DNA from: Deltaproteobacteria bacterium
GTDB taxonomy: Bacteria > Myxococcota > Kuafuiibacteriia > Kuafuiibacteriales > Kuafuiibacteriaceae
Assembly (NCBI GenBank): GCA_040218735.1
Contig: JAVJQW010000064.1
Span: 28,804 to 92,803 of the forward strand
Direction: 5' to 3'
Length of the DNA: 64,000 nt
The stretch's first letter is position 1. Each line of letters starts with the position of its first letter. The notes under the pieces were generated by a model that searched no databases, had not been told where the DNA came from, and was given only the letters and a program-made list of their open reading frames with translations. Made by a program: the position numbers and the translations under genes. Positions 32,288 through 63,432 of this stretch are shown one piece after another.

Positions 32288-34861
<2,574 letters not shown>

Positions 34862-43595: not shown

Positions 43596-43629
43596 GGTCG
43601 CGCCCCCATTCGTGGGAGACGATCGGGCG

Positions 43630-44277
43630 ATGGTCGACGTCTCGGACATCAAGACCACCGCGACGCTCCTCGAAGCGCTCGACCGACGCCAGGGCGACGC
43701 CGCCGCGAAGAAGGCCTTCGACGACGCGGTGTGGGCCGCCCGCGGGCGCGAAGCCGCGATCTTGGTGACGGACCTCTCCGGCTTCACCAAGCTGACGAAG
43801 CGCCACGGGATCCTGCACTTCCTCCAGGTCTTCCGCCGGTGCGAGCAGGCCTGCATGCCGGTCGTCGAAGCGCACGGCGGCGTGTTGATGAAACACGAGG
43901 CCGACGACCTCATCTGCATCTTCGACGACGCGCTCTCGGCGATCGGCGCGGCGTTCGGGATGCTGCGCGCGTGCGCCGCCGTGAACGCGACGCTCGACGA
44001 AGAGGACGACCACGTGAACCTCTGCATCGGCGTGGAGCACGGCCCGCTGCTGCGGCTCGACGACGACGCGTTCGGCGACGCGGTGAACGTCGCCTTCAAG
44101 CTCGGCGAAGACGTCGCGGAGCGGGGCGAGGTGTTGATCGGACCGACCGCCTACGCGGCCGCGCTCGACGCGGGGTACGACTTCTCGAAGATGATCATCG
44201 ACGGCCCGCGCGTCGTCACCACCGGCAACGTGCCGCTCGAACACTGGTCGGCTCGCCTCGAGCCCAAGAAGGACTGA
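43630..44277 (+). CDS. Stand-alone class III adenylate/guanylate cyclase domain protein
   Basis: ILVTDLSGFT, MKHEADD, CIGVEHG, DAFGDAVNVAFKL. Confidence 0.85.
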   Translation: MVDVSDIKTTATLLEALDRRQGDAAAKKAFDDAVWAARGREAAILVTDLSGFTKLTKRHGILHFLQVFRRCEQACMPVVEAHGGVLMKHEADDLICIFDDALSAIGAAFGMLRACAAVNATLDEEDDHVNLCIGVEHGPLLRLDDDAFGDAVNVAFKLGEDVAERGEVLIGPTAYAAALDAGYDFSKMIIDGPRVVTTGNVPLEHWSARLEPKKD

Positions 44278-44902: not shown

Positions 44903-45523
44903 ATGGGGTACGTGCGGGTGGGCTCGGCGTTCGTCGCGCTCTTGGTCGGGATCGGCGCCAGCGGAGTCGCGGCCGCCCAGTCGGGTGACACGGCGGGCGA
45001 AGACGGGCCCAAGGTCCAGCAGATCCGCGCCGTCGAGCGCGGCGGCTTCGTCCAGATGGACGTGGGCCTGACCTACCTCGTCAACAAGATCGACGACCGC
45101 AGCTACGGGCTCGGCATGGTCGTCGGCTTCTTCGGCGGCTACGACGTGCTGCCGATCCTCAACATCGGCGTCGGCGTCACGGCCATCGCGGCGGGCGTCC
45201 AGGTCGACGACAACACCCCGCCCCCGGTGGGCGACCTGCTGTTCGTCATCCCCACGCTCCGCGTGCAGTTCGCGGTGCTCACCACCGAGCGCAACTTCGT
45301 CTGGATCCGCGGCGACGTGGGCTTCGGCCTGGGCCTTCCGGGCCAGATCGACGGCGCCGACTACGGCGGCAACGGCCTCGCAGGCGGGATCGCGGTCGGT
45401 TTCGAGCGCTTCACGAAGCTGCGGCACTTCTCGATCGGCGGGATCGTCGGCGCGAACGTGGTGACGAAGCCGGCGGTGGGGATCGGGATCTCGGTGATCC
45501 CGATGGTGAAGTACACCTTCTGA
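44903..45523 (+). CDS. cglE: Outer-membrane beta-barrel gliding protein, CglE/GltH-like
   Basis: Signal peptide, VERG motif, amphipathic beta strands, terminal KYTF; sits directly upstream of agmK-agmX as in Myxococcus. Confidence 0.7.
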   Translation: MGYVRVGSAFVALLVGIGASGVAAAQSGDTAGEDGPKVQQIRAVERGGFVQMDVGLTYLVNKIDDRSYGLGMVVGFFGGYDVLPILNIGVGVTAIAAGVQVDDNTPPPVGDLLFVIPTLRVQFAVLTTERNFVWIRGDVGFGLGLPGQIDGADYGGNGLAGGIAVGFERFTKLRHFSIGGIVGANVVTKPAVGIGISVIPMVKYTF

Positions 45524-45694: not shown

Positions 45695-45758
45695 AGCGCT
45701 CGACGGTGGGTACCACCGCCCATGGACGGTGGTGCGGACCAGGGCTATCGTCCCGCCG

Positions 45759-48700: not shown

Positions 48701-51700
48701 GCAACGGTACGAAGAGCTCGCCGCGCTCCTCACCGAGCGGATGGCGGCGGCGGAGGACAAGTCGGCGAAGGTGCAGCTCGGGTTGGCGGTGGCGTCGATC
48801 CGCGCGGAGCACCTGAACGACACCGACGGATCGATCGAGGCCTATCGCGAGGTGCTCTCGCTCGAACCGAAGGAGGCGACGGCGCTCGCGCGCCTGGCCG
48901 AGACGTACGAGCGGGCCGAGCGGTGGCGTGAGCTGGTCGGCGTCCTGGATCGCATGCGCGACGCGAGCGACGACGCACGTGTCGTCGCCGCGACCGAGGT
49001 GAAGGCTGGCGAGGTGCTCCGCCTGCGCCTCAACGAGAAGAAGCAGTCGCTGGAGCGATACCAGGCCGCGCTCGCCGCGGATGACACGCACGACGGTGCG
49101 ATGCGCGGGCTGGAGGCGCTGCTCGAAGACGTCGAGCTGCGCGCGCAGGCGGGGGCTTCGCTGGAGCCCGCGTACACGAAGAAGGAGCGGTGGCGGGATC
49201 TCGTCATCGCGCTCGAGAGTCAGCTCGGCGCGGTCGTGGAGTCGGATCGGCGCCGCGATCTCTTCCTCAGGATCGCCGACGTCGAGAGCGACAAGCTGGA
49301 CCAGCCCGACGGTGCGTTCGACACCCTCGCGCGTGCGTTCCGCGAGGGCCTCGTACCCAACGAGGAGCGCGCCCGCCTCGCGACGCTCGCGCTGCGCGCG
49401 AACCGCGCCGGCGACCTCGCGGTGCTCTACGAAGACGCGCTCGAGACGAACAAGGACGACGCGGAGCTGCTCCGCGATCTCGCGCGCCTGTACGACGGCG
49501 CGGCGGGCGAGCCGAACAAGGCGCGCACGGCGTGGGAGCGCCTACGCAGCGCGGTGCCGGGCGACGAAGAGGCGCTCGGCGCGCTCGAGCGTCTGACCGC
49601 GGCGGGGGACGATCCGGGTGCGCTGGCCGAGGTGTTGATCGCTCGCGCCGATGCGTCCGCCGATGCGGCGGAGCGCGTCGCGTTCCTGAAGCGCGCGTCC
49701 GCGATCTACGAGGAGGCGGCCGAGGAGCTGGACCTCGCGACGCGCACGATGGAGCGCGCGCGGGACGTCGCGCCCACGGAGCGTTCGACGTGGCAGGAGC
49801 TGCAGCGGCTGTACGAGCTGCAGAGCAACGAGCAGGGGTTGATCAACGCCCTCGCGCAGGAGGCGAAGCTCATCGAGGAGCCGCTCGCGCGCGCCGGCGT
49901 GTTGGAGCGGTTGGCGCGCGCGCTGGTCGCGGCGGGCGAGCGGGACCGCGCGATCCAGGAGTTCACCGCGGCGCTCCAGGCGCACCCCGAGCACACCCCT
50001 TCACGCAACGGACTGGAGGATCTGCTCCAGACCGACGTCGCCGCGAAGGCGGCGGTCGCGCTCGAGCCCGTGTACCGGGCGGCGGGCGACTGGTCGCACC
50101 TCGTCGAGGCCTACGAGATCCTCGCGGGGGCGACCGAGGATTCGGCGGAGCGCGTGGAGCGGCTCGTTGCGATCCGTTCGATCTACGAGGAGCGCCTCGG
50201 CAAGCTCGACCGCGCGTTCTCCGCGGCGGCGCGGGCGTTCTCGGAGGCACCGCTCGACGAGGAGCTGCTGGAGTCGTTGGAGCGGCTCGGGCGCTTGTCG
50301 GGGCAGGTCGAGGAGCTGATCGGGATCGTCGAGGACCAGGCGGAGTCGCTGCCGGTCGCGGCGGACGAACGCAGCGCGCTCCGGCTGCGCGTCGCGCGTT
50401 ACGCGGAGGCGCTGCTGCGCGATCGCGACCAGGCGATCGCGGCGTACCAGAAGGTGATCGACGAGCGCCCGGACGCGGTCCTGGCGCTGGAGGCGCTGGA
50501 GCGCATCTACGCGAAGGGCGGCGACGCCCGCGAGCGCGTGGACGTCCTGCGGCGCATGGCGGACCTCACGGACGACGCCGAGGAGCGCGTCGCGCGGTTG
50601 CGATTGGCGGCGCAGATCCTCGACGAAAAGCTCGGCGACCGCGACAAGGCGGCGCACCTGTACGAGCAGGTCGTGATGCACGCGCCCGGTGACGCCGAGG
50701 CGCTCGGGCGCCTCGACGCGATCTACGCCGAGCTGCGTGACCACCCGATGCTCTCGCGCATCCTGGAGATGAAGGTCGCGGCTTCCTCGGGTGAGGCGTG
50801 GGCGCAATCCAACTTGCGGCTCGGTAACCTTCGGCGTGAGAAGCTCGACGATCCGCGCGGTGCGATGAACGCGTTCGTGCAGGTCCTCGACGCGGGGCCG
50901 GAGGTCGGCGCACCGTACGAAGCGGCGCTGTTCGCGCTGGACGATCTCGTCGACGCGCAGAAGGAGAACCACCCGGACCTCGCAGGGCTCGGCGCGGAGG
51001 CGATGGAGCCGCACTGGCTGAAGAAGGGGATGCCGCTGAAGGTGATCGGTGCGAAGGAAGCGCAGATCACCGCGGCCGACGATCCCGAGACGCGCCGGAA
51101 CCTCCTGCTGCAGATCGCGGATCTCTACGTCCAGGAGGCGGAGCAGCCCGAGATGGCGTTCCTCGCGCTGACGCGGGCGTTCTCGGAGCAGCCGAACGAC
51201 GCGGAGCTCGCGGACCGACTCGAGTCACTCGCGCGTCAGGCGGAGACCGAGGAAGAGCTCGCGGACGTGTACGCGGCGGCGCTGCCGTCGATCGAGGACC
51301 CGGAGCTTTCGCTGCGCCTCGCGCGGCGGACCGCGGATCTGTACGACCGGGTGTTGGGGCGCGGTGAGGCGTCGACCCCGTTCTACGAGCGGATCCTCGA
51401 GCAGTCCCCGGACGACGCCGCGGCGCTCGCGGCGTTGGAGCGCATCCACCGTCGCGCGGGCGACGCGAAGAAGCTCGTCGCGACGTACCGCGGGATGCTG
51501 CGGCTCGCGGAGCAGGACGCCGAGAAGGTGCGCTTGTGGGGGCAGATCGCTCAGCTGCTCGAAGGGGACATCGAGGACAGCGACGGTGCGTTCGAGGCGT
51601 ACCGCGAGATGATGTCGCTCATCCCGCACGACGTCGCGGTGCTCAAGAAGATGGCGTCGCTGTGCGAGCGCTCCGGGCGTGACCAGGACCTCGCGATGGT

Positions 51701-54700
51701 CCTCGCGAAGGAGTCGGCGCTCGCCGAGTCGCCGGCGGAGCGTTCGAAGGTGCTGTTGCGCCTCGCGACGCTGCAGCGCGAGAAGCTCGACGATCGCGTC
51801 GCGGCCGTCGACGCGTACGCCGAGGTCTTGGAGCTGTCGAAGTCGGACCCGGGTGCGATCGCGGGCCTGTCCTCGATCATGAAGTCCCAGGGCGACGGGC
51901 GCGCGGAGGCCGCCCGTGCGCTGGCGCCGGTCTACGAGATGACCGGCGCGTTCGACGAGCTGATCACGTGCCTGGAGGTGCAAGTCGGCGCGGCGCGCTC
52001 CGCGGAGGAGAAGAAGGCGCTGTTCTCGCGGATCGGTGAGATCTACGACGAGCGCGTCGGGCGCCCCGAGCACGCGTTCACGTATTACTCGCGCGCTTTG
52101 GTCGAGGACCTGTTCGACGAGGCGCTGTTCGAGAAGGTCGAGCTGCTGGCGAAGGAGAACGGGCTGTTCGAAGACCTCGCGGGGCTGTACCTCGACGAGG
52201 TCGACGCGGTCACGGATCACGCGCTGCAAGTTCGCTTGCACCGCCGGGTCGCGGAGATCTACGACGCCGATCTGAAGGACGTCCCGCGCGCGATTGCGGA
52301 GTACAACAAGGTGCTCGACGTCGCCCCGGGCGACGGCGGCGCGCTGCGTGCGTTGGAGCGGCTGTACCGCGACGCGGGCTCGTTCGGCTCGCTCGCCGAC
52401 GTCTATCGGCGGCGCATCGCCCAGACCGAGGACCCGGAGGGGCGCGGCAAGCTGATGCGCGAGTTCGCGCGGCTGCAGTCCGAGGAGCTCGACGATCTCC
52501 CTGGCGCGATCGCGACGCTGCGGCGGCTGCTCGAGCTGTTCCCGGACGACGTCGACGCGCTCGCGCGCCTCGCGAAGCTGTGTGAGGCGCAGGGCCGGGC
52601 GTCCGAGCTCGCGGACGTGTTGGAGCGCCTGATCGGCGCGGCCGAGGACGGCTCCGCGGTCCAGACGGACGCGCGCTTCTCGCTCGGCAAGCTGAAGGCC
52701 ACGCGCCTCGGTGACCTGGGCGGTGCGGACCTGCTGTTCGAGGAGGTCCTGGAGGCCAACCCCACGCACGAGGCCGCGCGTGACTACCTCGAAGAGCGCT
52801 TCGAGGACGCCGTCGCCGAGGAGGACGAAGCGGTCGCGACCGCGACCGGCGAGATGCTCGCGAAGGCGATGCGGACCGCGGAGCAGTGGGAGCAGCTCGT
52901 CTCGGTGCTGCGCGTGCGTGTGTCGCTAGCAGAGGATGCGTCGGAGCGCGTGCCGCTCAACCGCGAGATCGCGGACGTGCAGTGGCAGAAGCTCGAGGAG
53001 CCGCGGGCGGCGTTCGACACACTCGCGACGGTGTTCGTCGATGCGCCGGGTCTCGGTGAGGTGCGCGCGGGGCTGGAGTCCCTCGCGGAGCAGCTCGTCC
53101 GGCCGGACCGGTTGGTGGAGGTCTACGCGTCGGGGTTGTCGAACCTGCACGACACCGACGAGCGTGTGGAGGTCGAGCGTCGCATCGCGCAGATCCTCGA
53201 CCACGAGATCGCCGACAAGGAGCGCGCGGCGGAGGCGTGGCAAGACGTCTTGCGCGCGAAGCCCGAGGACGAGGAGGCGCTCGTCGCGCTCGACCGCCTC
53301 GACGAGATGCTCGGGCGCTGGGCGGCGCTGACCGACGTGCTCGAGAAGCGCGTCACCCTCGCGGAGGACGACGAAGAAAAACACCGCCTGTGTGTGCGGC
53401 TCGGCGCGACCTGGGACGAGCGGCTCGGCGAGCGCGCCGAGGCGATCGAGTGGTACCGCAAGGCGCGCGCGATCAAGACGCGTGACAAGGAGACGCTCCT
53501 CGCGCTGTCGCTCTTGCTGGATCCGGACGACCGCCCGCAGGAGCTGTTCGCGGTGCTGGAGGCGCTCGCGGAGCAGACCGAGGAGTCCCGCCAGAAGGTC
53601 CGGCTCACGAGCCGCATGGCGGAGCTCGCGTCGGGCCCGCTCGACCAGGGCAAGGAGGCGATCCAGCTCTATCAGAAGGTGCTGGAGGCCGACCCCGGGA
53701 ACAACGCGGCGACCAAGGCGCTCGAGGAGCTGTACGAGCGTGAGGGCCAGTGGTTCGAGCTCGCGCGGCACCTGGAGATGCAGCTCGAGAACGCGCGCGA
53801 CGAAAAGGACGTCATGCGTCTGCAGCGGCGCCTCGGGCTCGTGCGTGGCACGCGGCTCGGGAGCGTCGACGAGGCGGTGCGTTCGTGGACGGAGATCCTC
53901 AAGCGCAACCCGAACGACGTCGAAGCGCTCGAAGCGCTGCGCCAGACCTACCGCACCGCGGAGCGTTGGGACGACCTGGTCGCCACGCTCAGGAAGCTCA
54001 TCCCGCTGCAGATGGACGCGGCGGGGGTGAAGGCGATCCGGTTCGAGCTCGCGGAGGTGTTCCTCGAGCACACCGGCGAAAAGGACGAGGCGATCGAGTC
54101 CGCGAAGCGTGTGCTCGACGTGGAGCCGCACACCGTCGCGGAGCTGATGCGGCTGGAGGAGATCTTCACGCAGACCGGCGCGTACGGCGAGGCGGTCAAG
54201 GTGATGAACTACCGCGCCGAGCAGGCGGACACCGGCGGGGCGAAGGTCGACATCCTCTTCGAGATCGCGGCGATCTACGAGGACAAGATCAAGCGCAAGG
54301 CGGGTGCGGCCGCGGCGTACGAGCAGATCCTCGAGCTGGAGCCTTCGAGTCTGAAGGCGCACGAAGCGCTCGCGGCGATCTACGAGGACAACGGCGACTA
54401 CCGAAAGCTCGTCGAGCTCTACAACCGGCGGCTGAACGTCACGGAGGAGGTCGAGGAACGCAAGAAGCTGCTCTTCGCGGTGATCGACGTGCAGGAGCGC
54501 TGGCTCGGCCAGCCGGACCTCGCGTTCATGGCGGCGTGCCGGGCCTTCGGGGAAGAGGGCGCGGACGAGACGGCGCAAGAGATCGCGGAGCGGCTCGCGG
54601 AGGAGACGGACAGCTGGGAGATCCTGGCGGACGTCTACGCGGAGCAGGTCGAGCAGGTCGGCGTCGCGCGGGCGATCGAGCTGCGGCGTCGGCTCGGTGA

Positions 54701-57700
54701 GATCTACATTCAAAAGCTCGAGGAGGAGGACGAGGCCGAGAAGCAGTTCGAGATGGTGCTGTCGATGCGGCCCGAGGACGAGGTCGCGCGTGCGCACCTC
54801 GTCGAGCTGCTCGAGAAGAGCGACCGCTGGGGCGACCTCATCGCGCAGCTGCGCGAGAAGGTCGAGCTCGCGACGGACGTCGGCGACAAGAAGCGGCTGT
54901 ACCGCGAGATCGCGCAGATCGAGGAGACGCGCGTCGGTGACATCGAGGCGGCGATCTCCAGCACGAAGCGGGTGCTGGATCTCGATCCGGAGGACGGCCT
55001 CGCGCTCGCGGAGCTCGTGCGGATCTTCCGCTCGACGGAGAAGTGGCACCCGCTGCTCAACGTGCTCGGGCGTCAGCTCGAGCTCGCGGAGGAGGTCGAC
55101 GATCACAAGCGGCTGCGCTTCGAGATCGCGCAGGTCTGGGAGCAGGGGATCGAGGATCTCGATCGGGCGATCGAGCAGTACTCCGACGTGCTGCAGGTCG
55201 ACGCCGCCTACGCCCCCGCGCTGAAGGCGCTGGAGCGGCTCTACACTCAGGAGGAGCGGTGGATCGAGCTGGTCGACGTGTACGAGCGTCAGGTCGAGCT
55301 CACCGAGGATCCGACGGAGGCGGTGCGGCTGCTGACACGCGTCGCCTCGATCTGGGAGGACCAGTTCCGGGATCTGGAGGGCGCGAGCAAGACGTTGATC
55401 CGCGTGCTCGAGATCGAGCCCGAGCACCTGATGACCGTGAAGAGCCTGGAGCGCGTGTGGCGCCAGGCGGAGGACTGGGAGCACCTCGTCGAGGCGCTCG
55501 AACGGCACATCGAGCTGACCGACGACAAGATGGAGGTCGTCGGGCTGTACCTGGAGATCGGCGAGGTCATGAACCGCGAGCTGTCGCGGGCGGACCAGGC
55601 CGAAGAAGCGTTCACCGCCGCACTCGACGTGGACCCGAGCTCCCGCGAGGCGATCCACGCGCTCGGCGAGCTGCACGAGCGGCACGGCAACTGGTTCAAC
55701 GCGTTGGAGATGTTGCACCGCGAGGCGTCGCTGCTCGGCTCGCTGCCGGAGGCGGTGGAGCTGTACCACCGCATGGGCACCCTCAACGAGGACATGCTCA
55801 TGGACCGGGCGGCGGCGAAGGATTCGTACGGGCGCGCGCTGGAGATCGACCCGAGCTTCACGCCGGCGATTCGGGCGTTGCGCAAGATCCACGAGGCCGA
55901 GGGGAACTTCGTCGAGACGATCAACCTCGAGGCGCAGGAGGCGGAGCACACCGAGGACCTCGACGATCGCGCGGAGCTGTATCAGCTCGCGGCGGACACC
56001 TCGCTGGAGCAGTTCGACGACGAGGAGCGCGCGACGCAGTTGTACGAGCGTTCGCTCGAAGCGAACCCGTCGCACCTGCCGTCGGTCCGCACGCTTTCGG
56101 ACATCTACTTCGCGACCGAGGAGTGGGAGAAGGCGGAGAAGCTGCTGGAGCGTTTGGCGGATCGCCTGGACCGCGCGGCGGACACCGACGAGCTGTGCCG
56201 GACGTACTACCGGCTCGCGTACATCGCCGAGAAGCTCGGCGACGACCACGGCGCGCTGAAGCGTTACCTCGCGAGCTACGAGCTGGACTCGAGTTACCTC
56301 CCGACGCTGGAGGGGCTCGCGGCGGCGTTGCTCAGGGCCGAACGTTGGGAGGACGCGCAGCGGGTCTTCCAGACGATCCTCATCCAGCACAAGGCGTCGC
56401 TCACCGACGCCGAGGTGGTGGACCTGCACTTCTCGCTCGGTGAGCTCGCGATGAAGCTCGACCAGATCGAGCGCGCGCGGAAGAGCTTCGACAAGGCGCT
56501 CGCGCTCGACGCCGAACACGGCGCGACGCTCCGCGCGGCGGCGCAGCTCGCGGAGCGGCTCGAGGACTGGGAGGAGGCGTACGATCTTCGCGACCGGCTG
56601 ATCGTCTTGCTCGACGGCGACGAGAAGTTCGAGGAGCTCGTGCGGCAGGCGAAGCTCTGCCAGGAGAAGATCGGCGAGCCCTACCGGGCGATCGACGCCT
56701 ACGCGGAGGCGCGGCGGCTACGGCCGGACGACGTCGAAGTGCTGCGCGCGCTCGTCACGCTCTTCGAGGAGACGAGCCAGGTGCACCTGCTCGTCGAGGT
56801 GCTCTCGGATCTGGGGCGGTTGCTCGCCACGCCCGAGGAGCGGCGCGATGTGTTCGTGCAGCTCGCGGACGTCTACATGAAGAAGGGCGAGCCGGATCGG
56901 AAGGGCGCGGTGAAGGCGCTCAACGCCGCGCTCGACGAGGACCCGCGGTACCTGAAGGCGTTCTCGCGCATCGAGGAGATCCTGGGCCGCGCGAAGCAGT
57001 GGCAGGGCCTCGAAGAGAACTACCACCGGATGATCAAGCGGATGCCGAAGGAGGACAAGAAGGCGCGCGGCGTCCTCTGGCGCTCCCTCGGGGATCTGTA
57101 CACCCGCGTCATCAAGGATCCGGAGCGGGCGAAGGTCGCGTACGAGGTCGTGCTCAAGCTCGAGCCAGAGGCGACCGACATCGCGCTGCACCTCGCGACG
57201 ATCTACACGGCGAAGCGCGAGACGGCGTCGAAGGCGCTCGCGCTCTACCACCGGCTGCTGCCGGACGTGGACGATCCGGCGCTCCCCGCGCGGCGGCTGT
57301 TCGAGCTGTACTCGGCGCTCGGTCAGCGTGACCGGGCGTTCTGTGCGCTCGGTGCGTTGCATCTGATGCGAGCGGCGAGCGAGGACGAGCAGAAGGCGTA
57401 TCAGCTCCTCTTGAAACGTTCGCCGTCGTGGCCGTCGCGGGCGCTGACGGACAACCTGTGGCGGACGCAGGTCCTCCACCCGCTGTGCCGCAACCCGTTG
57501 GCGCAGATCCTCAGCGTGCTCTACCGGGGCGCGCCGGAGCTGTTCGCGGAGGGGCAGCGCGAGTTGGCGCTGAAGAAGAAGGAGCGGATCGACCTGTCGC
57601 CGAACACCCGGAACAAGCGGGTGCGGCTGAGGTACTTCGACATCTTCTCGCGGCTCGCGAGCGCGATGCACGTCCCGCCGATGGAGCACTTCCACCGGCC

Positions 57701-58277
57701 CGGCTCGACGGCGGCGCCGCGGCTGTATCCGGGTGCGCCGCCCGTGCTGTTCGCCGGTGAGGGGCACGAGACGTTCAAGGTCGCCAAGCCGCGGCAGATC
57801 GCGTGGACGCTCGCGCGGCAGATGGCGGCGGCGCGGCCGGAGCTGGCGCCGGTGCGTGCGCTGGCGCCGGAGGAGGTCGGTGCGGCGATCGAGGCGGCGA
57901 TCCTGTTGTGGTCGCCGGAGGGATCGGGTGTGAACCTGAACCTCGACCCGCGGCTGGTGCAGCAGTGGTCGAAGGCGCTCCAGCGGACGATGCAGGACCC
58001 GGCGATCAAGGCGTTGAAGGACCCGGTGGTCCAGTGTCTGCAGACGCGGCAGATGCGCCACCTCGCCAAGTTCCTGGAGGGGGCGGAGCACTCGGCGTCC
58101 CGGGCGGCGCTCCTGCTGTCCCATGACGTGGTAGCGGCGGAGCGTGGGCTCGGGGAGTCGGATCAGCTGGTGGACGTTTCGTTTAGATCCAGGGTGCGCA
58201 CCCTGATGCTGTTCACGCTCAGCGAGGACCACTTTTCGCTACGGGAGAAGCTGGGGTTGGCGATTCCCTCGGAGTAG
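45759..58277 (+). CDS. agmK: Giant tetratricopeptide-repeat gliding protein AgmK/GltI-like (~4170 aa)
   Basis: Continuous TPR-like repeats (A...Y..AL..DP....A...LERL); lies between cglE-like and agmX-like genes; ATG 45759. Confidence 0.85.
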   Translation: MPEIEVQDGAQEAPKTAADDASKPNGHVPKSRVLDTEGLLDNDRLAAVEQELVDAERWADLAAVYGVAAERAPDASVGRQMLLSAGLLWLEKLNQPRRAEPYLARVLASDPDNVDALEAMRDICVEAGRFEEAADLLDRAALLVRDEDRSELLVEIAGIAYAKLSEVDRALAALRYAYELDPARVDVLDEARTVFIAEERWLDAKRVLDDQAQVVLAAIEKPTSDQTADVAGANADEAKPSDTLDMQGTLPSSMQNEATASIAEAYRHLGIALLDHAVWHELSQQCLDRARALGDAEALSKLDELAHIKNEWKSHAARYRDEGMEARDKRRAAALYLKAAELYAHYGEDPIRADEYLDRCLLLVPGYPPALRFIEARQAGAGPSEAIVKRLEGMVASVKDPTIKVEILQRLARLLETTLAQLPEGEDGTATVDSIVAAYRRALALAPGHRSVAARVTQILMAEERFGDAAQVLESHLSALTDEYAKNQAHLELGRLYAEMLGDSTRARAHFEAVLVHNPAHHGAARALYALYKDAGDAHHLLSVLKVLVEYSPDLFSRLDMLHEMASVAAEVSREEAFLVNRQIFEIDPDADGVRDRLETLAEALSRHHALADAYRAAAEKKGGERALSLWLAAARIYDEKLPRPKDAIDAYKSALNLDSSNDEARAALERLLRQQDDPEALVAVLQSQLDGSDDADNKKLLLAKIGDVLDRELNDVDGAIDRFVQVLELDPDDATALANLDDLYRRAERFEEQEQILVRRESKMETASDLVDIQVRRARVLQEKLDKAVDAAELYLDILARSPDHGEVIAALGRLLVADVVPVRIARALEPIFGQRGQYQPQLDMILILTDAEQDPSARAELARRGAQIAQTRLGDANAAFDLVATALRASPGSEDLAEWLLRLATELETHDRAAEVLSSILEGDLEPAVEGNIASALAELYERTLADPSQAITYYRRALDADGGNAAAIAALERLLGAEQRYEELAALLTERMAAAEDKSAKVQLGLAVASIRAEHLNDTDGSIEAYREVLSLEPKEATALARLAETYERAERWRELVGVLDRMRDASDDARVVAATEVKAGEVLRLRLNEKKQSLERYQAALAADDTHDGAMRGLEALLEDVELRAQAGASLEPAYTKKERWRDLVIALESQLGAVVESDRRRDLFLRIADVESDKLDQPDGAFDTLARAFREGLVPNEERARLATLALRANRAGDLAVLYEDALETNKDDAELLRDLARLYDGAAGEPNKARTAWERLRSAVPGDEEALGALERLTAAGDDPGALAEVLIARADASADAAERVAFLKRASAIYEEAAEELDLATRTMERARDVAPTERSTWQELQRLYELQSNEQGLINALAQEAKLIEEPLARAGVLERLARALVAAGERDRAIQEFTAALQAHPEHTPSRNGLEDLLQTDVAAKAAVALEPVYRAAGDWSHLVEAYEILAGATEDSAERVERLVAIRSIYEERLGKLDRAFSAAARAFSEAPLDEELLESLERLGRLSGQVEELIGIVEDQAESLPVAADERSALRLRVARYAEALLRDRDQAIAAYQKVIDERPDAVLALEALERIYAKGGDARERVDVLRRMADLTDDAEERVARLRLAAQILDEKLGDRDKAAHLYEQVVMHAPGDAEALGRLDAIYAELRDHPMLSRILEMKVAASSGEAWAQSNLRLGNLRREKLDDPRGAMNAFVQVLDAGPEVGAPYEAALFALDDLVDAQKENHPDLAGLGAEAMEPHWLKKGMPLKVIGAKEAQITAADDPETRRNLLLQIADLYVQEAEQPEMAFLALTRAFSEQPNDAELADRLESLARQAETEEELADVYAAALPSIEDPELSLRLARRTADLYDRVLGRGEASTPFYERILEQSPDDAAALAALERIHRRAGDAKKLVATYRGMLRLAEQDAEKVRLWGQIAQLLEGDIEDSDGAFEAYREMMSLIPHDVAVLKKMASLCERSGRDQDLAMVLAKESALAESPAERSKVLLRLATLQREKLDDRVAAVDAYAEVLELSKSDPGAIAGLSSIMKSQGDGRAEAARALAPVYEMTGAFDELITCLEVQVGAARSAEEKKALFSRIGEIYDERVGRPEHAFTYYSRALVEDLFDEALFEKVELLAKENGLFEDLAGLYLDEVDAVTDHALQVRLHRRVAEIYDADLKDVPRAIAEYNKVLDVAPGDGGALRALERLYRDAGSFGSLADVYRRRIAQTEDPEGRGKLMREFARLQSEELDDLPGAIATLRRLLELFPDDVDALARLAKLCEAQGRASELADVLERLIGAAEDGSAVQTDARFSLGKLKATRLGDLGGADLLFEEVLEANPTHEAARDYLEERFEDAVAEEDEAVATATGEMLAKAMRTAEQWEQLVSVLRVRVSLAEDASERVPLNREIADVQWQKLEEPRAAFDTLATVFVDAPGLGEVRAGLESLAEQLVRPDRLVEVYASGLSNLHDTDERVEVERRIAQILDHEIADKERAAEAWQDVLRAKPEDEEALVALDRLDEMLGRWAALTDVLEKRVTLAEDDEEKHRLCVRLGATWDERLGERAEAIEWYRKARAIKTRDKETLLALSLLLDPDDRPQELFAVLEALAEQTEESRQKVRLTSRMAELASGPLDQGKEAIQLYQKVLEADPGNNAATKALEELYEREGQWFELARHLEMQLENARDEKDVMRLQRRLGLVRGTRLGSVDEAVRSWTEILKRNPNDVEALEALRQTYRTAERWDDLVATLRKLIPLQMDAAGVKAIRFELAEVFLEHTGEKDEAIESAKRVLDVEPHTVAELMRLEEIFTQTGAYGEAVKVMNYRAEQADTGGAKVDILFEIAAIYEDKIKRKAGAAAAYEQILELEPSSLKAHEALAAIYEDNGDYRKLVELYNRRLNVTEEVEERKKLLFAVIDVQERWLGQPDLAFMAACRAFGEEGADETAQEIAERLAEETDSWEILADVYAEQVEQVGVARAIELRRRLGEIYIQKLEEEDEAEKQFEMVLSMRPEDEVARAHLVELLEKSDRWGDLIAQLREKVELATDVGDKKRLYREIAQIEETRVGDIEAAISSTKRVLDLDPEDGLALAELVRIFRSTEKWHPLLNVLGRQLELAEEVDDHKRLRFEIAQVWEQGIEDLDRAIEQYSDVLQVDAAYAPALKALERLYTQEERWIELVDVYERQVELTEDPTEAVRLLTRVASIWEDQFRDLEGASKTLIRVLEIEPEHLMTVKSLERVWRQAEDWEHLVEALERHIELTDDKMEVVGLYLEIGEVMNRELSRADQAEEAFTAALDVDPSSREAIHALGELHERHGNWFNALEMLHREASLLGSLPEAVELYHRMGTLNEDMLMDRAAAKDSYGRALEIDPSFTPAIRALRKIHEAEGNFVETINLEAQEAEHTEDLDDRAELYQLAADTSLEQFDDEERATQLYERSLEANPSHLPSVRTLSDIYFATEEWEKAEKLLERLADRLDRAADTDELCRTYYRLAYIAEKLGDDHGALKRYLASYELDSSYLPTLEGLAAALLRAERWEDAQRVFQTILIQHKASLTDAEVVDLHFSLGELAMKLDQIERARKSFDKALALDAEHGATLRAAAQLAERLEDWEEAYDLRDRLIVLLDGDEKFEELVRQAKLCQEKIGEPYRAIDAYAEARRLRPDDVEVLRALVTLFEETSQVHLLVEVLSDLGRLLATPEERRDVFVQLADVYMKKGEPDRKGAVKALNAALDEDPRYLKAFSRIEEILGRAKQWQGLEENYHRMIKRMPKEDKKARGVLWRSLGDLYTRVIKDPERAKVAYEVVLKLEPEATDIALHLATIYTAKRETASKALALYHRLLPDVDDPALPARRLFELYSALGQRDRAFCALGALHLMRAASEDEQKAYQLLLKRSPSWPSRALTDNLWRTQVLHPLCRNPLAQILSVLYRGAPELFAEGQRELALKKKERIDLSPNTRNKRVRLRYFDIFSRLASAMHVPPMEHFHRPGSTAAPRLYPGAPPVLFAGEGHETFKVAKPRQIAWTLARQMAAARPELAPVRALAPEEVGAAIEAAILLWSPEGSGVNLNLDPRLVQQWSKALQRTMQDPAIKALKDPVVQCLQTRQMRHLAKFLEGAEHSASRAALLLSHDVVAAERGLGESDQLVDVSFRSRVRTLMLFTLSEDHFSLREKLGLAIPSE

Positions 58278-58371: not shown

Positions 58372-61300
58372 ATGAAATTCAGCTGCGACAACTGCGGAGC
58401 GCAATACTTGATCGCCGACACGAAGCTCGGCGACCGCGGCGTGAAGGTCCGGTGCAAGAAGTGTTCGTACGTGATCATTCTTCGCCCGGAGGGGTTCGTC
58501 GCGGAGCCGAAGAACGGCGCGACGAAGGCCAACGGCCACGACGCCCACGCCGAGGCGCCTGAAACGGCGGACGCCGAGACGCGTCACTCGATCCCGAACG
58601 ACGCGACGCTCCCCGGGGAGATCGTCGCGGCGACGTCCTCCGAGCTGGGGCTGTCGCAGGAGTTCATGGCGCTGGGCTTCGACGACGACAACGCCCCGGT
58701 GGCGCCGTCGCGGAACATGTCGCTCTCGGTCGGGCTGGACGTCGCACAGATCGACGGGGGCCTCGCGGAGTCGCACTCCTCGCCGTTCTCCTCCGAGCGG
58801 ACGGGCGGTTCGCTCGACTACGTGACGGATCGGCCGTCGGCGCAGCCGAGCGTCGTGCCGGCGAAGCCGTACGGGGACGACTCGACGGAGATCCTGCCCG
58901 GTGGCGGTGGCCTCGGGCACGCGCAGACGCGGGAGATCACCGCCGAAGAGGAGGAGGTCGCGACGCGCGTCGAAGCGCGCGAGGACCTCGAAGACGAACC
59001 TACGCTCGCGCGCGACGCGCCCGACGCCTTCGGCGGCGTGGATGGCGTCGCCGGCTTCGGTGACGAGGCCACGGTCGGCGAGCACGACGCCGCAGCGGAC
59101 GCGTTCCTGCCTCCGCCCGAGTCGCCCGCGGACGAACCGCCGGTGCCGGTGGCGTACGGGGTGTCCGAGGAGGACGCGCGGGCCGACTCGTTCGACGCCG
59201 CGTTGGGGAGCGCGCTCGAGCGCGAAGAACATCCGACCGACGAGGGTGATCTCGACAGCGAGGGCATCGGCGAGACGATGCAAGGCGACGCGCCGAAGTG
59301 GGCGATCGACGCCGTGAACGACGCCCTGGGCTCGGACGACGACATCAACGACGACGCCGCGCTCGCCGCGCTGGGCGTACCGCCCGATCCCGCCGAGGGC
59401 CTCGGCGCGGAGGGCGGCGGTCTCGACGACGACTTCAACGCCGACTTCGACGCGGGGCTGTCCGCGGACGAAGCGAACCAGTTCAGCACGGCGTTCGGTG
59501 ACGACGCCACGGCCGGGCTCGACGACGACGATGACGACGCCGCGGCACTCGCTGCGCTGGGGGCTTCGTCCGACGTCGTCGACGAGGACAGCGCCGACAT
59601 CAGCGGCGCGCTCTCCTCGATGCAGGTGAACGAGCTCGCGGACATGAAGTCCTCGATCGAGGGTGAGCTCGCGGGGCTCGGCTCCGAGCTTTCGGCGTTC
59701 GGCGCTGACGCGTCCGACGAAGACCCCAAGACGGCCGTCGGGCCCGCGCCCGAGATGGACGAGGCGCCGGCGCCCGAAGTGTTGGCCGCCCCCGAAGCGC
59801 AAGAAGAGGACGGTCCGCTGGTCGACGAAGGCTCCGTCGAGGACGAGCTGGGCAGCGCCTTCGCGGCGATGTTCGACGGCGATGGGCCCATGGCGGGCGG
59901 CGACGACGGAATGCCGGACCTCGCCTCCGAGCTCGCGCCGAGCGCCGGGGTGCCCGCCGAGACGCGGGTGTTCGACACGGACGCGATGGCGCAGGTCCAG
60001 GCCGAGCAGGAGATCGCGGGGCGGTCCCAGACTCGGGAGTGGTACGTCGCGATCAACGACGAGCAGGTGGGTCCGCTGAACCTCGACGAGCTCGAGGCAA
60101 AGTGGAAGACCGGCGAGATCGACGCGAACACGCTGTCGTGGCGCCAGGGCATGGCGGACTGGACGGCGATTCGGTTCACCGAAGGGCTCGAGCCGATCAG
60201 CGCGCTCGGTGCGGAGAAGGTGCCGGCCGTCGACGAGGCGGACGTACCGGAGCCCTCCGAGATGTCGCAGGACGGCACGCCGCCGCAGCTCGCGATGGAG
60301 CCGGAGGCGCCCGAAGAGGCCCCTGCCGCTTCGGCGTCGGCTCCGGAGCCGGAGCCCGAGGCGGAAGACGACGACTCGGGCTGGAAGCCCTCCGCGGCGA
60401 GCGCGTTGGCGTCGTTGGCCGCCGAGGAGCTGGCCGCCGCGCCGGAGCCTGCACCGGTCAGCGACGTCGCCGTGGGGCCGGCGATCCCGGCCGCGAGCAC
60501 GGCGCTCGAGAAGCTCCTCGAAGGGGAGAACGACGGCCCGGGCGCTTCGATGTTCGGGGCCGCCGAGAAGAGCGAGTCGGCGGTGCGGCCGCTGCCGCGT
60601 CGGCCGGACACGGTCAGCTCGGTGCCGCTCCGCGATCCGACGATCGAGCGCAGCAAGAAGAACTACACGATCCCCGCCGCGATCCTCGGTGGGTTCCTGC
60701 TCCTCGGCGTCGTCCTCGCGGGGACGATCTGGATGACGAGCGGGAGCAAGCCGAGCGAGCCCGTCGCCGCGGCACCGCCGCCCACCGACGTGGCGCCGCC
60801 GCCCACCGACGTGGCACCGCCGCCTGCGCCGCCGCCCGTGGTCCCGGCCGCAGGGGTCGCCGGAGCGACGGGGCCATCGGGTGCCACGGGGCCCACCGGC
60901 CCGACCGGCCCGTCGGGTGGGGCGACGGAGGTCGCGGCCGTGACGCCGCCGCCGGCGCCGCCGCCCGAGGTCGAGGAGAAGAAGGTCGACGAGGAGCCGC
61001 CGCCGCCGAAGAAGCGCCGTCGCCGTCGTCGTCGCAAGGTGGACGATGCGCCGCCGCCGCCGCCGCCGCCGCGTGAGCCGCCGCCGCCCCCGCCGGCACG
61101 TCGGCGGACGAGTTCGGACGACACCGCGGATCTGCTCGGCGCTGCGCCGGCGTCGCGCCGTCGTCTGCCGCCGCCGCCGCCCGAGTCGGACGTGCCGAAG
61201 CAGCTCGACGACTCCGACGTCCTCGGTGTCCTCCGCAAGAACGCGGGCGCGGTGCGGACCTGCCTCAAGAAGCAGGCGGCCGCGGACCCGGCGCTCGACG

Positions 61301-61488
61301 GCACGATGACGGTCAAGATGGTCATCACACGTTCGGGTCGGACGCGTCGGGTTTCGGTGTCGCCGGACAAGTTCAAGAGCGCCGTGATCGGCAAGTGTGT
61401 GTCGTCGTCGGTGAAGGGCTGGCGCTTCCCGAAGTTCTCGGGCCCCAACATGCCGATCGACTTCCCGGTGACGGTCCGCGGGCGCTGA
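58372..61488 (+). CDS. agmX: Gliding motility protein AgmX/GltJ
   Basis: Zinc ribbon CDNC...VRCKKC; acidic linker; GYF_2 domain WYVAINDEQVGP...WRQGMADW; one TM helix; Pro-rich stalk; TonB-C-like end (C...C...WRFPKF). Confidence 0.88.
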   Translation: MKFSCDNCGAQYLIADTKLGDRGVKVRCKKCSYVIILRPEGFVAEPKNGATKANGHDAHAEAPETADAETRHSIPNDATLPGEIVAATSSELGLSQEFMALGFDDDNAPVAPSRNMSLSVGLDVAQIDGGLAESHSSPFSSERTGGSLDYVTDRPSAQPSVVPAKPYGDDSTEILPGGGGLGHAQTREITAEEEEVATRVEAREDLEDEPTLARDAPDAFGGVDGVAGFGDEATVGEHDAAADAFLPPPESPADEPPVPVAYGVSEEDARADSFDAALGSALEREEHPTDEGDLDSEGIGETMQGDAPKWAIDAVNDALGSDDDINDDAALAALGVPPDPAEGLGAEGGGLDDDFNADFDAGLSADEANQFSTAFGDDATAGLDDDDDDAAALAALGASSDVVDEDSADISGALSSMQVNELADMKSSIEGELAGLGSELSAFGADASDEDPKTAVGPAPEMDEAPAPEVLAAPEAQEEDGPLVDEGSVEDELGSAFAAMFDGDGPMAGGDDGMPDLASELAPSAGVPAETRVFDTDAMAQVQAEQEIAGRSQTREWYVAINDEQVGPLNLDELEAKWKTGEIDANTLSWRQGMADWTAIRFTEGLEPISALGAEKVPAVDEADVPEPSEMSQDGTPPQLAMEPEAPEEAPAASASAPEPEPEAEDDDSGWKPSAASALASLAAEELAAAPEPAPVSDVAVGPAIPAASTALEKLLEGENDGPGASMFGAAEKSESAVRPLPRRPDTVSSVPLRDPTIERSKKNYTIPAAILGGFLLLGVVLAGTIWMTSGSKPSEPVAAAPPPTDVAPPPTDVAPPPAPPPVVPAAGVAGATGPSGATGPTGPTGPSGGATEVAAVTPPPAPPPEVEEKKVDEEPPPPKKRRRRRRRKVDDAPPPPPPPREPPPPPPARRRTSSDDTADLLGAAPASRRRLPPPPPESDVPKQLDDSDVLGVLRKNAGAVRTCLKKQAAADPALDGTMTVKMVITRSGRTRRVSVSPDKFKSAVIGKCVSSSVKGWRFPKFSGPNMPIDFPVTVRGR

Positions 61489-61490
61489 GC

Positions 61491-62624
61491 GTGCGGAGCG
61501 TCGTCCCGGTCCACCCCTCCGCGGAGTTCGCGCCGCTCGGGCGCTTCGGATCGCAGGACCTCGACGTCCTGCGCCTCATGCTCCGCGGGAGCTCGGTCGT
61601 CGACTGGTACCGCCTCCACTTCACGACGCGCGAGGGCATCGACGCCTTCGTGCGGGTCAACGAGCTGGACCCCGCGAACCCTTCGGACCGGTTCCGGCTG
61701 GAGACGCTGAAGAAGCGCGCGCTCGACTACCTGCGTGAGCACCTCGCGTACCGCCGCATCCCGGACGTGGTCCTCAACGCGGAGGTCCCGGAGCTGTTCG
61801 AGTACGCGTCCGGGAAGGGGCGGCGCGCGTATCGCATGTACGCGTGTCTGACGCTGAAGGTCATGCACATCATCCACTACGTCGAGGCGCACGAGCTGCT
61901 CTCGATGTTGCCGATCTCCAACGCGGAGATCGCGATCCTGTTGCACGGGAAGGTGGAGCGGGTGGTGCGTGGGTTGCTGGAGCGCAACTTCCCGATCCTC
62001 GAGTTCTCCGGGAACACCAAGACGCGCAACTCGATGATCTCGAAGCTGCTCGCGAAGAAGGACACGCAGGCGGCGCAGGTGTTCGACAAGTTGCGCTTCC
62101 GGTTCGTGGTGGAGCGGCACGAGGAGATCCCGTCGCTGTTGTTGGCGCTGACGCGGGAGCTGCTGCCGTTCAACTACTTGGTGCCCGCGCAGGCGGACAA
62201 CACCCTCGTCGATCTCGAGCGGATGTTGATGCGCGCCGGCAACCTCACGGCGATTCGCGAGTCGCAGGCGGAGCGCGTCGCGATGAACGAGCGCGCCGAC
62301 GCAAAGTTCCCGATGGACCCGACCAACGAGTTCTCCGGCCCCGACTACCGCGTGGTGCACTTCGTGGCCGAAGTGCCGATTCGGATCGACCGCGTGATGG
62401 AGGTGCAGGGCCGGCGGATGCGCGGCTTGGGGCCCGTGGTCTTCGGCACTGTCGAGTTCCAGGTGATGGACGCGGAGACCGCGAAGACCAACGAAACCGG
62501 CCCGAACAGCCACGCCAACTACAAGCGGCGGCAGCGCTCGCGGGTGAAGGAGCGGCTCGAGCGCGGCAAGCGCGAGAAGGTCGTCGCGCCGGCATCATCC
62601 ACGCCGCCCAAGGGTTCTGCTTGA
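61491..62624 (+). CDS. TIGR04552-like protein with RelA/SpoT synthetase-like motifs
   Basis: LRGSSVVDW N-terminus; KTRNSMISKLL, FDKLRFR, YRVVH, VEFQ...E.G...H..YK. GTG 61491, 2 nt after the agmX stop. Confidence 0.8.
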   Translation: MRSVVPVHPSAEFAPLGRFGSQDLDVLRLMLRGSSVVDWYRLHFTTREGIDAFVRVNELDPANPSDRFRLETLKKRALDYLREHLAYRRIPDVVLNAEVPELFEYASGKGRRAYRMYACLTLKVMHIIHYVEAHELLSMLPISNAEIAILLHGKVERVVRGLLERNFPILEFSGNTKTRNSMISKLLAKKDTQAAQVFDKLRFRFVVERHEEIPSLLLALTRELLPFNYLVPAQADNTLVDLERMLMRAGNLTAIRESQAERVAMNERADAKFPMDPTNEFSGPDYRVVHFVAEVPIRIDRVMEVQGRRMRGLGPVVFGTVEFQVMDAETAKTNETGPNSHANYKRRQRSRVKERLERGKREKVVAPASSTPPKGSA

Positions 62625-62652
62625 CAGGGCGCCGCGTGCGCCGCGGAAGTCG

Positions 62653-63432
62653 ATGACGATGCGAGGTGGAATGCAGACGCAGCTGGCGTGGGGGAAGCCG
62701 GGCAAGACGATCATCGCGCTGATGGCCTCCGTGGTCGTCGCGTACGTCCTGCAGCTCATCCTCCTGCGCGCCGGCCAGGCGTGGGTCCGCGACCTGTACC
62801 TGTCACCGCGCGGGGTCTTCGAGTCGTACTACCTGTGGCAGCCGGTCACGTACCTGTGGATGCACGCGCCCGACTCGCCGTTCCACATGATCTTCAACAT
62901 GCTCTGGCTGTGGATCTTCGGGACGCAGCTCGAGCAGTGGTGGGGGCGCAAGCGCTTCCTCATCGCCTACCTCGTCTTCGGGCTGTCGGGCGCCGCGCTG
63001 ATCCTCATCCTCGGGCTGTTGTCGCTGACCCCGGTGCTCCGCCCGCTGCTCGGGAGCTTCTGGGTCGTCCCGCACCTCGGCGCCTCGGGCGCGACCATCG
63101 GCATCACCGTCGCGTGGGGCCTCACCTACGCGAACCAGGAGATGAACTTCTTCCTGCTCGGGCGCATGAAGGGGAAGACGTTCGTCCTGATCGTCGTCGC
63201 CATCGAGCTGCTCATGGCGCTGTCCTTCTCGGCGGTGTCGAGCGCGGCGCACTTCGGGGGGATCATCGGGGCGTTTGTGCTGTGCCGGGGGCTTTGGAAG
63301 CCGAGTAAGTGGAAGCAGATGGTGAAGAAGCAGAAGCTTCAGCGGCAGCGGAAGAAGATCGAGACTGAGCTTCGGATCATCGAGGGGGGTGGTGGGGATG
63401 AGCCGCCTGATGATCCGATGAAGTGGAATTAG
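62653..63432 (+). CDS. Rhomboid family intramembrane serine protease
   Basis: LWQPVTY, HMIFNM, catalytic GASG and AHFGG. Confidence 0.92.
   Translation: MTMRGGMQTQLAWGKPGKTIIALMASVVVAYVLQLILLRAGQAWVRDLYLSPRGVFESYYLWQPVTYLWMHAPDSPFHMIFNMLWLWIFGTQLEQWWGRKRFLIAYLVFGLSGAALILILGLLSLTPVLRPLLGSFWVVPHLGASGATIGITVAWGLTYANQEMNFFLLGRMKGKTFVLIVVAIELLMALSFSAVSSAAHFGGIIGAFVLCRGLWKPSKWKQMVKKQKLQRQRKKIETELRIIEGGGGDEPPDDPMKWN

Follow-up and report, generated by a model that had tools for sequence, protein, structure and literature searches.

The DNA analysed here, referred to as the window, is a stretch of 64,000 nucleotides from contig JAVJQW010000064.1 of a Deltaproteobacteria bacterium (GTDB phylum Myxococcota, family Kuafuiibacteriaceae). 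Close to its downstream end, a gene of the NCBIfam family TIGR04552 begins directly behind a gltJ-like gene. A first-pass annotation, made without database searches, had proposed that this gene encodes a divergent RelA/SpoT-type synthetase wired to the gliding machinery. The first half of that proposal is upheld by the predicted fold, by a comparison of sequence profiles and by the conservation of catalytic residues: the C-terminal part of the protein is supported as a deeply diverged synthetase domain of the RelA/SpoT homologue (RSH) type, additional and paralogue-like to the canonical Rel of the same genome. The second half has to be limited to particular lineages.

The limits of the gene are those given by the first-pass annotation and were confirmed by translation and by the DNA itself (...cgc tga gc gtg...), in which the GTG start lies 2 nt past the TGA of the open reading frame (ORF) that ends at 61488. 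The start residue (MRSVVP...) is common to orthologues of 97, 82 and 74% identity. The product is soluble and has no membrane-span-like stretch (hydropathy maximum 1.21). By profile score, it is a full member of TIGR04552, a catalogued but functionally uncharacterised family (312.6 bits against a cut-off of 125, E 3.9e-93, residues 21–357 covering model positions 2–351 of 352), and it also passes the sister model TIGR04562 (295.1 bits against a cut-off of 140). The Myxococcus xanthus protein MXAN_4858 falls in the same family, and no defining difference sets the protein of the window apart from these models. The family comprises 236 relatives at E <= 0.001 (90% clusters) with the same length and two-domain build, and at the same threshold it accounts for 1017 representative clusters in a set of 1.84 billion. 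Of the 201 Myxococcota genomes sampled, 145 have a TIGR04552 match, nearly always as a single copy, and a published annotation table of a Bdellovibrio genome includes a TIGR04552 family protein. A search among the relatives for longer fused forms (661–2000 aa) found none, which is weak evidence; family representatives of 459–501 aa carry extensions without a Pfam domain. A literature search on TIGR04552, TIGR04562, MXAN_4858 and Myxococcus small alarmone synthetases found no paper linking the family to RSH proteins and none with a pyrophosphokinase assay of a member. The gene, its domains and its motifs, the latter located by hidden Markov model (HMM) alignment and by hhalign, are as follows.

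61491..62624, + strand: TIGR04552-family gene, 377 aa, GTG start, stop included in the coordinates
61491..61913, + strand: N-terminal helical domain, residues 1–141, family-specific (AlphaFold2 models)
61914..62555, + strand: C-terminal RSH synthetase-like domain, residues 142–355 (predicted fold and hhalign)
62019..62045, + strand: K177-x3-S181-x3-K185, aligned with the Rel motif KxxxSxxxK, which binds ATP phosphate (HMM alignment with 7oiw, S. aureus Rel; hhalign)
62085..62102, + strand: D199-K-L-R-F-R204 strand, aligning to the catalytic Asp and following Arg of Rel FDxxAxR (HMM alignment, hhalign)
62166..62324, + strand: family-specific segment, residues 226–278, PFNYxVPxQxxN followed by an insertion of ~40 residues (233–276; hhalign gap pattern)
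62325..62360, + strand: rebuilt acceptor loop N279-E-F-S-G-P-D-Y286-R-V-V-H290, opposite Rel PKPNGYQSLH (hhalign)
62454..62525, + strand: E322-x-Q324 ... E335-x-G337 ... H341-x-x-Y344-K345, gap-free to Rel ExQxRT...AExGxAAHWxYK (HMM alignment, hhalign)

Four stretches of the translation of 61491–62624 (+ strand) carry the motifs.

Residues 177–190: KTRNSMISKLLAKK
Residues 198–207: FDKLRFRFVV
Residues 285–290: DYRVVH
Residues 322–345: EFQVMDAETAKTNETGPNSHANYK

The N-terminal domain is modelled with confidence (predicted local distance difference test score, pLDDT, 84–97 over residues 41–130) and has conserved residues of its own (G33, S35, D38, Y80, C119, K123 and H126). When it was modelled alone, the best Foldseek match had E 1.5 and the best match of the PDB-wide VIA search was RbcX at Z 5.8, which is in the chance range for helical models. 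The HD, TGS and ACT domains of long RSH proteins, already reported as not visible by the first-pass annotation, were not found by Pfam at E <= 1 or by model searches with the N-terminal domain. For HD, no chain occurs among the listed structural matches, which does not exclude an HD-like origin of the N-terminal domain; for TGS and ACT, the protein stops 32 residues past the YK motif.

Fold and motifs of the C-terminal domain

The AlphaFold2 (AF2) model of the protein was built from 27 sequences and has a mean pLDDT of 80.6. Among the hits listed by Foldseek against the PDB, the top 12 belong without exception to RelP, RelQ or Rel (E 3-7e-4), and their global template modelling (TM) scores are low (0.20–0.49) because half of the protein alone matches. 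Re-scoring with VIA-align placed model residues 142–354 on Rel, RelA, RelP and RelQ at Z 9.0–11.3, with a root mean square deviation (rmsd) of 2.7–3.8 Å over 124–153 residues. The best Z, 11.3, belongs to RelSeq; SpoT and Thermus thermophilus Rel gave 7.2–9.3 and polymerase X ~7. A PDB-wide search that did not use Foldseek (48,161 representatives) returned seven chains at Z >= 8, all of them RSH proteins (Rel, RelA, SpoT, RelP and RelQ; Z 8.7–10.7), and the next match was the unrelated nucleotidyltransferase toxin MenT1 (Z 6.8). The model held by the ESM Atlas matches over residues 130–348 a cluster of 183-aa proteins labelled 'GTP pyrophosphokinase', a small alarmone synthetase (SAS), with a TM-score of 0.71 normalised by that entry. 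The fold predicted for the C-terminal domain is that of an RSH-type nucleotidyltransferase.

The sequence relationship emerged when families were compared with families. An alignment of 41 family sequences against an alignment of 31 myxobacterial Rel synthetase domains gave an hhalign score of 41.0 (E 5.3e-5, 151 columns), whereas reversing the alignment gave 18.5 and the highest score in 20 column shuffles was 19.5 (E 0.087). Single sequences on the Rel side were not sufficient: the 27-sequence alignment against the genome's Rel and its small RSH gave E 0.093 and 0.19, which is not significant, and hhalign became informative once the Rel side was also an alignment. Searched against the PDB, the family HMM aligned best with S. 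aureus Rel (E 0.058), the two halves following in the correct order. The protein alone found only a chance spectrin match among PDB sequences with phmmer (E 1.4).

The first-pass annotation had described four motifs in RSH order, and all four are present where it placed them. Conservation was counted in 41 family sequences from 23 genome families. The K-S-K triad is kept almost without exception (K177 40/41, S181 39/41, K185 41/41), as are the residues of the following strand (D199 40/41, R202 40/41, R204 39/41). The last motif, which had been aligned to the Rel consensus at E, Q, E, G, H, Y and K, is indeed gap-free to Rel in both the HMM alignment and hhalign, and it is equally well kept (E322 41/41, Q324 40/41, D327 41/41, G337 40/41, H341 40/41, Y344 40/41, K345 38/41). 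The pattern E.Q.{10}E.G...H..YK matches only two of the 75,494 six-frame ORFs (at least 80 aa) of the genome, this one and the canonical long Rel. D199 and E322 align to the RSH catalytic Asp of the DxxxxR strand and the Glu of ExQ, and we take them to be the catalytic pair, from the roles of D264 and E323 in RelSeq. Between these blocks, the conserved PFNYxVPxQxxN (P226 41/41, P232 39/41, N237 40/41) aligns with WxPVPGR of Rel, P226 and P232 being the paired prolines.

The protein departs from canonical RSH enzymes in four places: the Arg of RxK, the insertion of ~40 residues, the acceptor loop and a basic helix after YK. The loop (NEFSGPDYRVV(N/H)) is longer than that of Rel by five residues; hhalign sets N279 (41/41) on the Asn and Y286 (37/41, Phe in the other 4) on the Tyr of Rel with the extra residues between them, and S282 is kept in 40/41. 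The YxSxH motif reported earlier is thus present in its Tyr and His as Y-R-V-V-H, but the Ser of Rel PKxNGYxSxH is Val in this protein and the His is Asn in 33 of the 41 sequences. Residues 264–281, covering part of the insertion and of the loop, are modelled at pLDDT < 50. The basic helix is itself conserved: residues 341–377 hold 12 Lys or Arg against 3 Asp or Glu, and R347, Q348 and R355 are each found in 39–41 of 41.

A single sequence among the 41 has lost most core residues together. This homologue, from a ~3-Mb Myxococcota genome of 34% G+C (L040; G033:C39 9400–10443, minus strand), has an ORF that is open at 347 aa, and its losses include the positions of K177, S181, D199, R202, R204, Q324, H341 and Y344. 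To judge from these losses, it may represent one degenerate, pseudo-enzyme lineage.

Several results weigh against the reading as an RSH enzyme. Pfam PF04607 scores the protein at 17.5 bits against a gathering threshold of 27 (E 0.0053, residues 176–220, model positions 3–46 of 113), so that by score it falls formally outside Pfam RelA_SpoT. The hhalign probability for the family against Rel is only 67%. The family HMM recovered only the protein itself from the 75,494 six-frame ORFs with default filters; with filters off (--max), the genome's Rel ranked 8th with the C-terminal HMM (E 14) and ~50th with the full-length HMM (E 130). The complete RxKxxxSxxxK of the first-pass annotation is absent, since position 175 is Asn here and Gly, Ser or Asn in 40/41, and the acceptor loop is altered from that of Rel in a region partly of low model confidence. 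The Pfam picture is the same across the family: PF04607 finds 21 of 27 members, weakly and with a best E of 3.4e-4; of the scores listed for relatives, including two further ones, not one reaches 27 bits; and none of the PF04607 matches at E <= 1e-8 in 41 genomes lies at a listed TIGR04552 locus. Other Pfam families appear in at most two members each, and at E <= 1 the protein has one chance match besides the weak PF04607. The comparison with RelP, RelQ and PF04607 suggested by the first-pass annotation therefore gave the expected structural answer and a sub-threshold Pfam one. Weak single tests beside a significant profile–profile result indicate a relationship that is remote but real, and fold, motif order and conservation together make it very likely that the protein is a true RSH relative.

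Among known systems, RelQ (SAS1) and RelP (SAS2) of Bacillota share the synthetase fold (Z 9–10.7, rmsd 2.9–3.8 Å, 141–153 residues), stand alone like the TIGR04552 protein, in which no HD, TGS or ACT domain was found, and have the same K-S-K, Asp, Glu-x-Gln and H-x-x-Y-K residues. Unlike them, at 14–19% identity, the TIGR04552 protein lies below the PF04607 threshold, adds an N-terminal domain of ~140 residues without a recognised fold, and combines the missing Arg of RxK with the insertion and the rebuilt loop. The long RSH proteins (Rel, RelA, SpoT) provide the best structural match, to RelSeq, and the 151-column profile match to Rel spans every catalytic motif. The toxic SAS (toxSAS) enzymes CapRel and FaRel2 and the (p)ppApp synthetase Tas1 have in common with it the RSH fold and an altered acceptor side, but the structural scores (CapRel Z 6.4–6.5, Tas1 Z 5.5) are below those for Rel and SAS. 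In contrast to the toxSAS genes, the TIGR04552 gene is conserved in single copy across the phylum and has no toxin–antitoxin or defence context: no PADLOC match was obtained for the protein at E <= 0.01, and its neighbours are gltJ-like and rhomboid genes.

Genomic context and linkage to gltJ

In the window, the gene stands in a string of genes on the same strand.

44903..45523, + strand: CglE-like gene (NF033755 77.7 bits, cut-off 70), just upstream of the giant tetratricopeptide repeat (TPR) gene
45729..58277, + strand: giant TPR protein (4182 aa) in the GltI/AgmK position; TPR models only, named by position and by tblastn conservation in 26/40 loci
58372..61488, + strand: GltJ-like gene (1038 aa); zinc ribbon 1–35, GYF 557–606, membrane span ~764–790, AgmX/PglI-type C-terminal domain 945–1033
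62653..63432, + strand: rhomboid-family membrane protease gene (PF01694 E 9.6e-22), 28 nt past the TIGR04552 stop

The upstream neighbour had been named gltJ outright. Its zinc ribbon of the MJ0042 type, GYF domain and AgmX/PglI tail fit that name, and NF033761 is its best NCBIfam match, but at 266 bits it stays under the 450-bit cut-off; by domain content it is GltJ-like and not a certified GltJ. The gaps between the TPR giant, the gltJ-like gene, the TIGR04552 gene and the rhomboid gene are 94, 2 and 28 nt, and no terminator-like sites were found between them on the + strand. Such gaps on one strand make it very probable that the TIGR04552 gene shares a transcript with gltJ and that its translation is coupled to that of gltJ. 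The rhomboid gene is the last one readable downstream, the contig ending where the window ends; it adjoins the TIGR04552 gene in 5/5 loci of the same family and, on either strand, in 16 of the 19 closest named loci (L076–L094). Metatranscriptome evidence for transcription of the TIGR04552 gene is too thin to count: run X22 holds three short contigs of a 93–97% relative (62042–62192, 62609–63097 and 63130–63280), no more than 16 nt of the 488-nt contig lie on the TIGR04552 side of the rhomboid junction, and DNA is possible in such libraries. Near-identical relatives are present in marine or aquaculture samples, as a 12,976-nt sponge-metagenome contig (X2) covers 61102–63400 with 21 differences and biofloc contigs (X3) cover most of it.

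The GltE/GltG-like pairs of this genome lie on other contigs, so the gltI–gltJ unit of the window is detached from them and yet retains the TIGR04552 gene. Three GltG-like/GltE-like pairs (G000:C1:4835–8893, C23:116647–120213 and C9:426076–428853) and a second TPR frame of ~4170 aa (G000:C39:286004) were located, and the genome may have several paralogous Glt/Nfs-type systems; the TIGR04552 gene accompanies only the gltI–gltJ unit of the window. The same genome encodes a canonical 732-aa Rel (L072 370–2568, minus strand) and a small RSH protein that passes PF04607. The latter (L073, G000:C28, 4–1290 and 1366–2334; 322 aa, PF04607 E 1.1e-15) lies immediately behind the fragment of a GajA/OLD-like ATPase gene and is hit by the PADLOC candidate model PDC-S33 (E 2.4e-18). 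It resembles a small alarmone synthetase of the defence type and has no bearing on the TIGR04552 gene. Elsewhere in the window, 34722–35828 encodes an MshE-type c-di-GMP-binding domain (NF053729 66 bits), 39123–40523 a beta-CASP nuclease whose best NCBIfam match, type VII CRISPR Cas14, is far under its cut-off (383 against 800 bits), and 43561–44277 a protein of 238 aa whose match to an adenylate/guanylate cyclase domain is borderline (E 1.2e-4).

Linkage to gltJ was followed across Myxococcota in two sets of loci and in whole genomes. Sample A consists of 40 loci of ~20 kb from 23 GTDB families, picked for diversity and length of contig. A gene with zinc ribbon and GYF domain lies upstream on the same strand in 25/40, and one locus with GYF only and one with the C-terminal tail only bring the count to 27/40. 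Of the 23 families, 10 show clear linkage, 2 partial linkage and 11 none. Sample B consists of the 80 best named loci, all from Myxococcota and from source genomes that overlap those of sample A, and 58 of them are informative, having 3 kb or more of flank upstream. Among these, 29/58 have two or more GltJ domains upstream and 29/58 have none; in the clade of the window (56–65% identity), each of the 14 informative loci is linked. When the best 150 of 810 GltJ-like matches were compared by coordinates with the TIGR04552 matches (genome G195 omitted), both genes occurred in 91 genomes, and the TIGR04552 gene was downstream on the same contig and strand in 78 of them. All 50 genomes with a GltJ above the curated cut-off among these matches are linked, two of them with only the 3' half of gltJ on the contig, and these genomes come from three families only.

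The distance between the two genes varies. Across the 62 linked loci of samples A and B, the gap is at most 300 bp in 37 and 0.3–3.6 kb in 25. The genes abut in the clade of the window and in Anaeromyxobacter-sized genomes; loci of the Myxococcaceae type have genes for a 313-aa Cys-rich lipoprotein-like protein and a 190-aa MORN-repeat protein in between (L042 7758–8699 and 8830–9402). Linkage is kept at ~40% protein identity across two deep clades, often with gaps below 40 bp. A maximum-likelihood tree of the 41 proteins groups the sequences by genome family, as expected under vertical descent, and places the linked ones in two large clades and the unlinked ones in a third clade and on basal branches. 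The minimum number of linkage changes on this tree is 4 (2 of them forced by starred branches), against a mean of 11.2 in shuffles, and 0 of 500 shuffles are as low.

Other observations speak against a general association of the gene with gltJ. In the 11 unlinked families, it lies away from gltJ. Four of these families (L037, L055, L059 and L061) have MurJ and then a convergent MazG after the TIGR04552 gene, and a fifth (L064 and L065) has a GlnD-like gene upstream and MazG downstream. Metagenome-assembled genomes (MAGs) labelled Haliangiales or Polyangia have a convergent PEGA Ser/Thr kinase of 900–1100 aa after it in 4/4 loci viewed, and in one MAG labelled Myxococcaceae it is preceded by rpoA–rplQ. 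Conversely, one family (f3) has GltJ-like genes in 18/18 genomes, some full-length (E 1e-81), and a TIGR04552 match, a weak one, in 1/18; three gltJ loci of this family searched with filters off contain no relative. The linkage that the first-pass annotation had singled out for checking is thus common but not universal. The gene does not accompany the Agl–Glt machine wherever that machine is present, as a core component would.

As to these alternative neighbourhoods, the kinase genes are all on the minus strand (L096 7095–9815, L098 7200–10217, L099 7162–10440 and L110 9188–11914). In a locus of the window's own family, MurJ and MazG lie 5–8 kb downstream of the TIGR04552 gene (L034 15893–18907). 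The placing of a MazG pyrophosphohydrolase gene beside an RSH-like one could be meaningful or fortuitous; the arrangement recalls the relA–mazEFG operon of E. coli, as a curiosity only.

Catalysis, acceptor and a possible tie to gliding

The best explanation of these observations as a whole is a two-domain soluble RSH-type enzyme that is coupled with gltJ in some lineages (probability roughly 0.55). The component of this reading that concerns gliding applies to the lineages retaining the operon and is not a property of the whole family; even there, it is tentative and somewhat less probable than its opposite. The cytosolic module of GltJ, composed of the zinc ribbon and the GYF domain, is described as binding MglA–GTP and AglZ (PMC11135422), and in the lineages that keep the operon the enzyme would most likely supply or sense a nucleotide in step with production of this switch module. 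A 2026 preprint describes M. xanthus MXAN_4858 as behaving like most glt genes in developmental transposon sequencing (Tn-seq). The same preprint cites Pathak and Wall (2012) for an insertion in MXAN_4858 without an overt motility defect, which adds to the evidence against a role in gliding. Of the earlier proposal that the protein is wired to the gliding machinery, what stands is the frequent linkage, its persistence in two deep clades and the glt-like Tn-seq pattern; the unlinked families, the family with GltJ and no TIGR04552 gene, and the insertion mutant stand against it. The TIGR04552 protein does not belong to the obligatory components of the gliding machinery.

The alternative that survives best is that of a housekeeping RSH-like enzyme that serves general physiology or the envelope; its place beside gltJ would then have historical reasons, and gliding would not depend on it. 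Single-copy occurrence in most Myxococcota genomes, the location beside MurJ/MazG, GlnD-like/MazG, Ser/Thr kinase or rpoA–rplQ genes in the unlinked families, the family that retains GltJ alone and the cited insertion mutant would all be accommodated by it. It accounts less readily for a linkage held across two deep clades at ~40% identity with gaps often below 40 bp, for the persistence of that linkage here, where gltI–gltJ is separate from the other glt-like clusters, and for the glt-like Tn-seq pattern, and we consider it rather unlikely.

For the RSH-type enzyme, conservation favours catalysis, which is probable. A near-invariant ATP- and Mg-binding core beside an altered acceptor side fits an enzyme that uses ATP and Mg but handles its second substrate in another way. 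If it works as RSH enzymes do, the protein would be an active ATP-dependent pyrophosphokinase that moves the beta–gamma pyrophosphate from ATP onto the 3'-OH of a ribose. The acceptor would be other than the GDP or GTP of Rel, or bound otherwise, in view of the rebuilt loop and of the conserved insertion of ~40 residues next to it. A pseudo-enzyme, that is, a nucleotide-binding or scaffold protein with the RSH fold but without transfer catalysis, is improbable. The lost Arg of RxK, the rebuilt loop and the sub-threshold PF04607 score would suit such a protein, and the L040 lineage has lost most core residues and retains the gene. Yet D199, E322 and each residue of the K-S-K triad persist in 39–41 of the 41 sequences across 23 families, as is expected of catalysis and not of mere binding.

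A slightly smaller chance still is given to an RSH-type enzyme with a macromolecule as its substrate, for instance the tRNA 3' end that the toxSAS enzymes CapRel and FaRel2 modify, and not with a free alarmone as its product. RSH-only proteins that produce (pp)pApp or pyrophosphorylate tRNA are documented in print, CapRel is among the structural matches, and the rebuilt guanine-side loop together with the basic conserved helix after YK could serve such a target. Against this, the protein is nearer to Rel, RelP and RelQ (Z 9–11) than to CapRel, has no PADLOC match and no small antitoxin-like partner among its neighbours, and is encoded by a single-copy gene with a tree consistent with vertical descent. 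Finally, it is very improbable that the domain is no RSH relative at all and has a generic Pol-beta-type nucleotidyltransferase fold, or that its likeness to RSH is a modelling artefact: sequence searches from the family side are weak and Pol X, CD-NTases and MenT do reach Z 5–7, but RSH chains lead all other nucleotidyltransferases by ~2 Z units, the catalytic residues and the order of the motifs are colinear with RSH, the controls of the profile comparison fail, and two independent predictors (AF2 and ESM) give the same fold.

RSH enzymes are the source of (p)ppGpp, of (p)ppApp and of tRNA-pyrophosphorylating toxins, and an RSH-type enzyme with a rebuilt acceptor site could make a product that is new. 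Published censuses of RSH proteins are HMM-based (Atkinson, 2011; Jimmy, 2020). The former names a 'bdRel' group for beta/delta-proteobacteria; the main text of the latter does not contain 'Myxococc', and three of its supplement files give only Rel for Anaeromyxobacter. As the family lies under the Pfam RSH threshold, these censuses probably miss it, and with it a phylum-wide, single-copy and apparently catalytic branch. Should the tie to gliding fail, the family would remain an uncharacterised branch of RSH proteins in its own right.

The coupling with gltJ and the glt-like Tn-seq behaviour of MXAN_4858 offer a concrete hypothesis for M. xanthus genetics. In its fullest form, an active pyrophosphokinase that makes a non-canonical nucleotide, or locally converts GTP or GDP, would be produced, in Myxococcia and in the clade of the window, stoichiometrically with GltJ, the membrane switch that reads the MglA–GTP gradient, and would tune focal adhesions; this combination of claims is a long shot. 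If it were true, a dedicated nucleotide signal would tune the assembly or disassembly of focal adhesions, and these bacteria would have a motility-specific second branch of alarmone-type signalling beside the stringent response.

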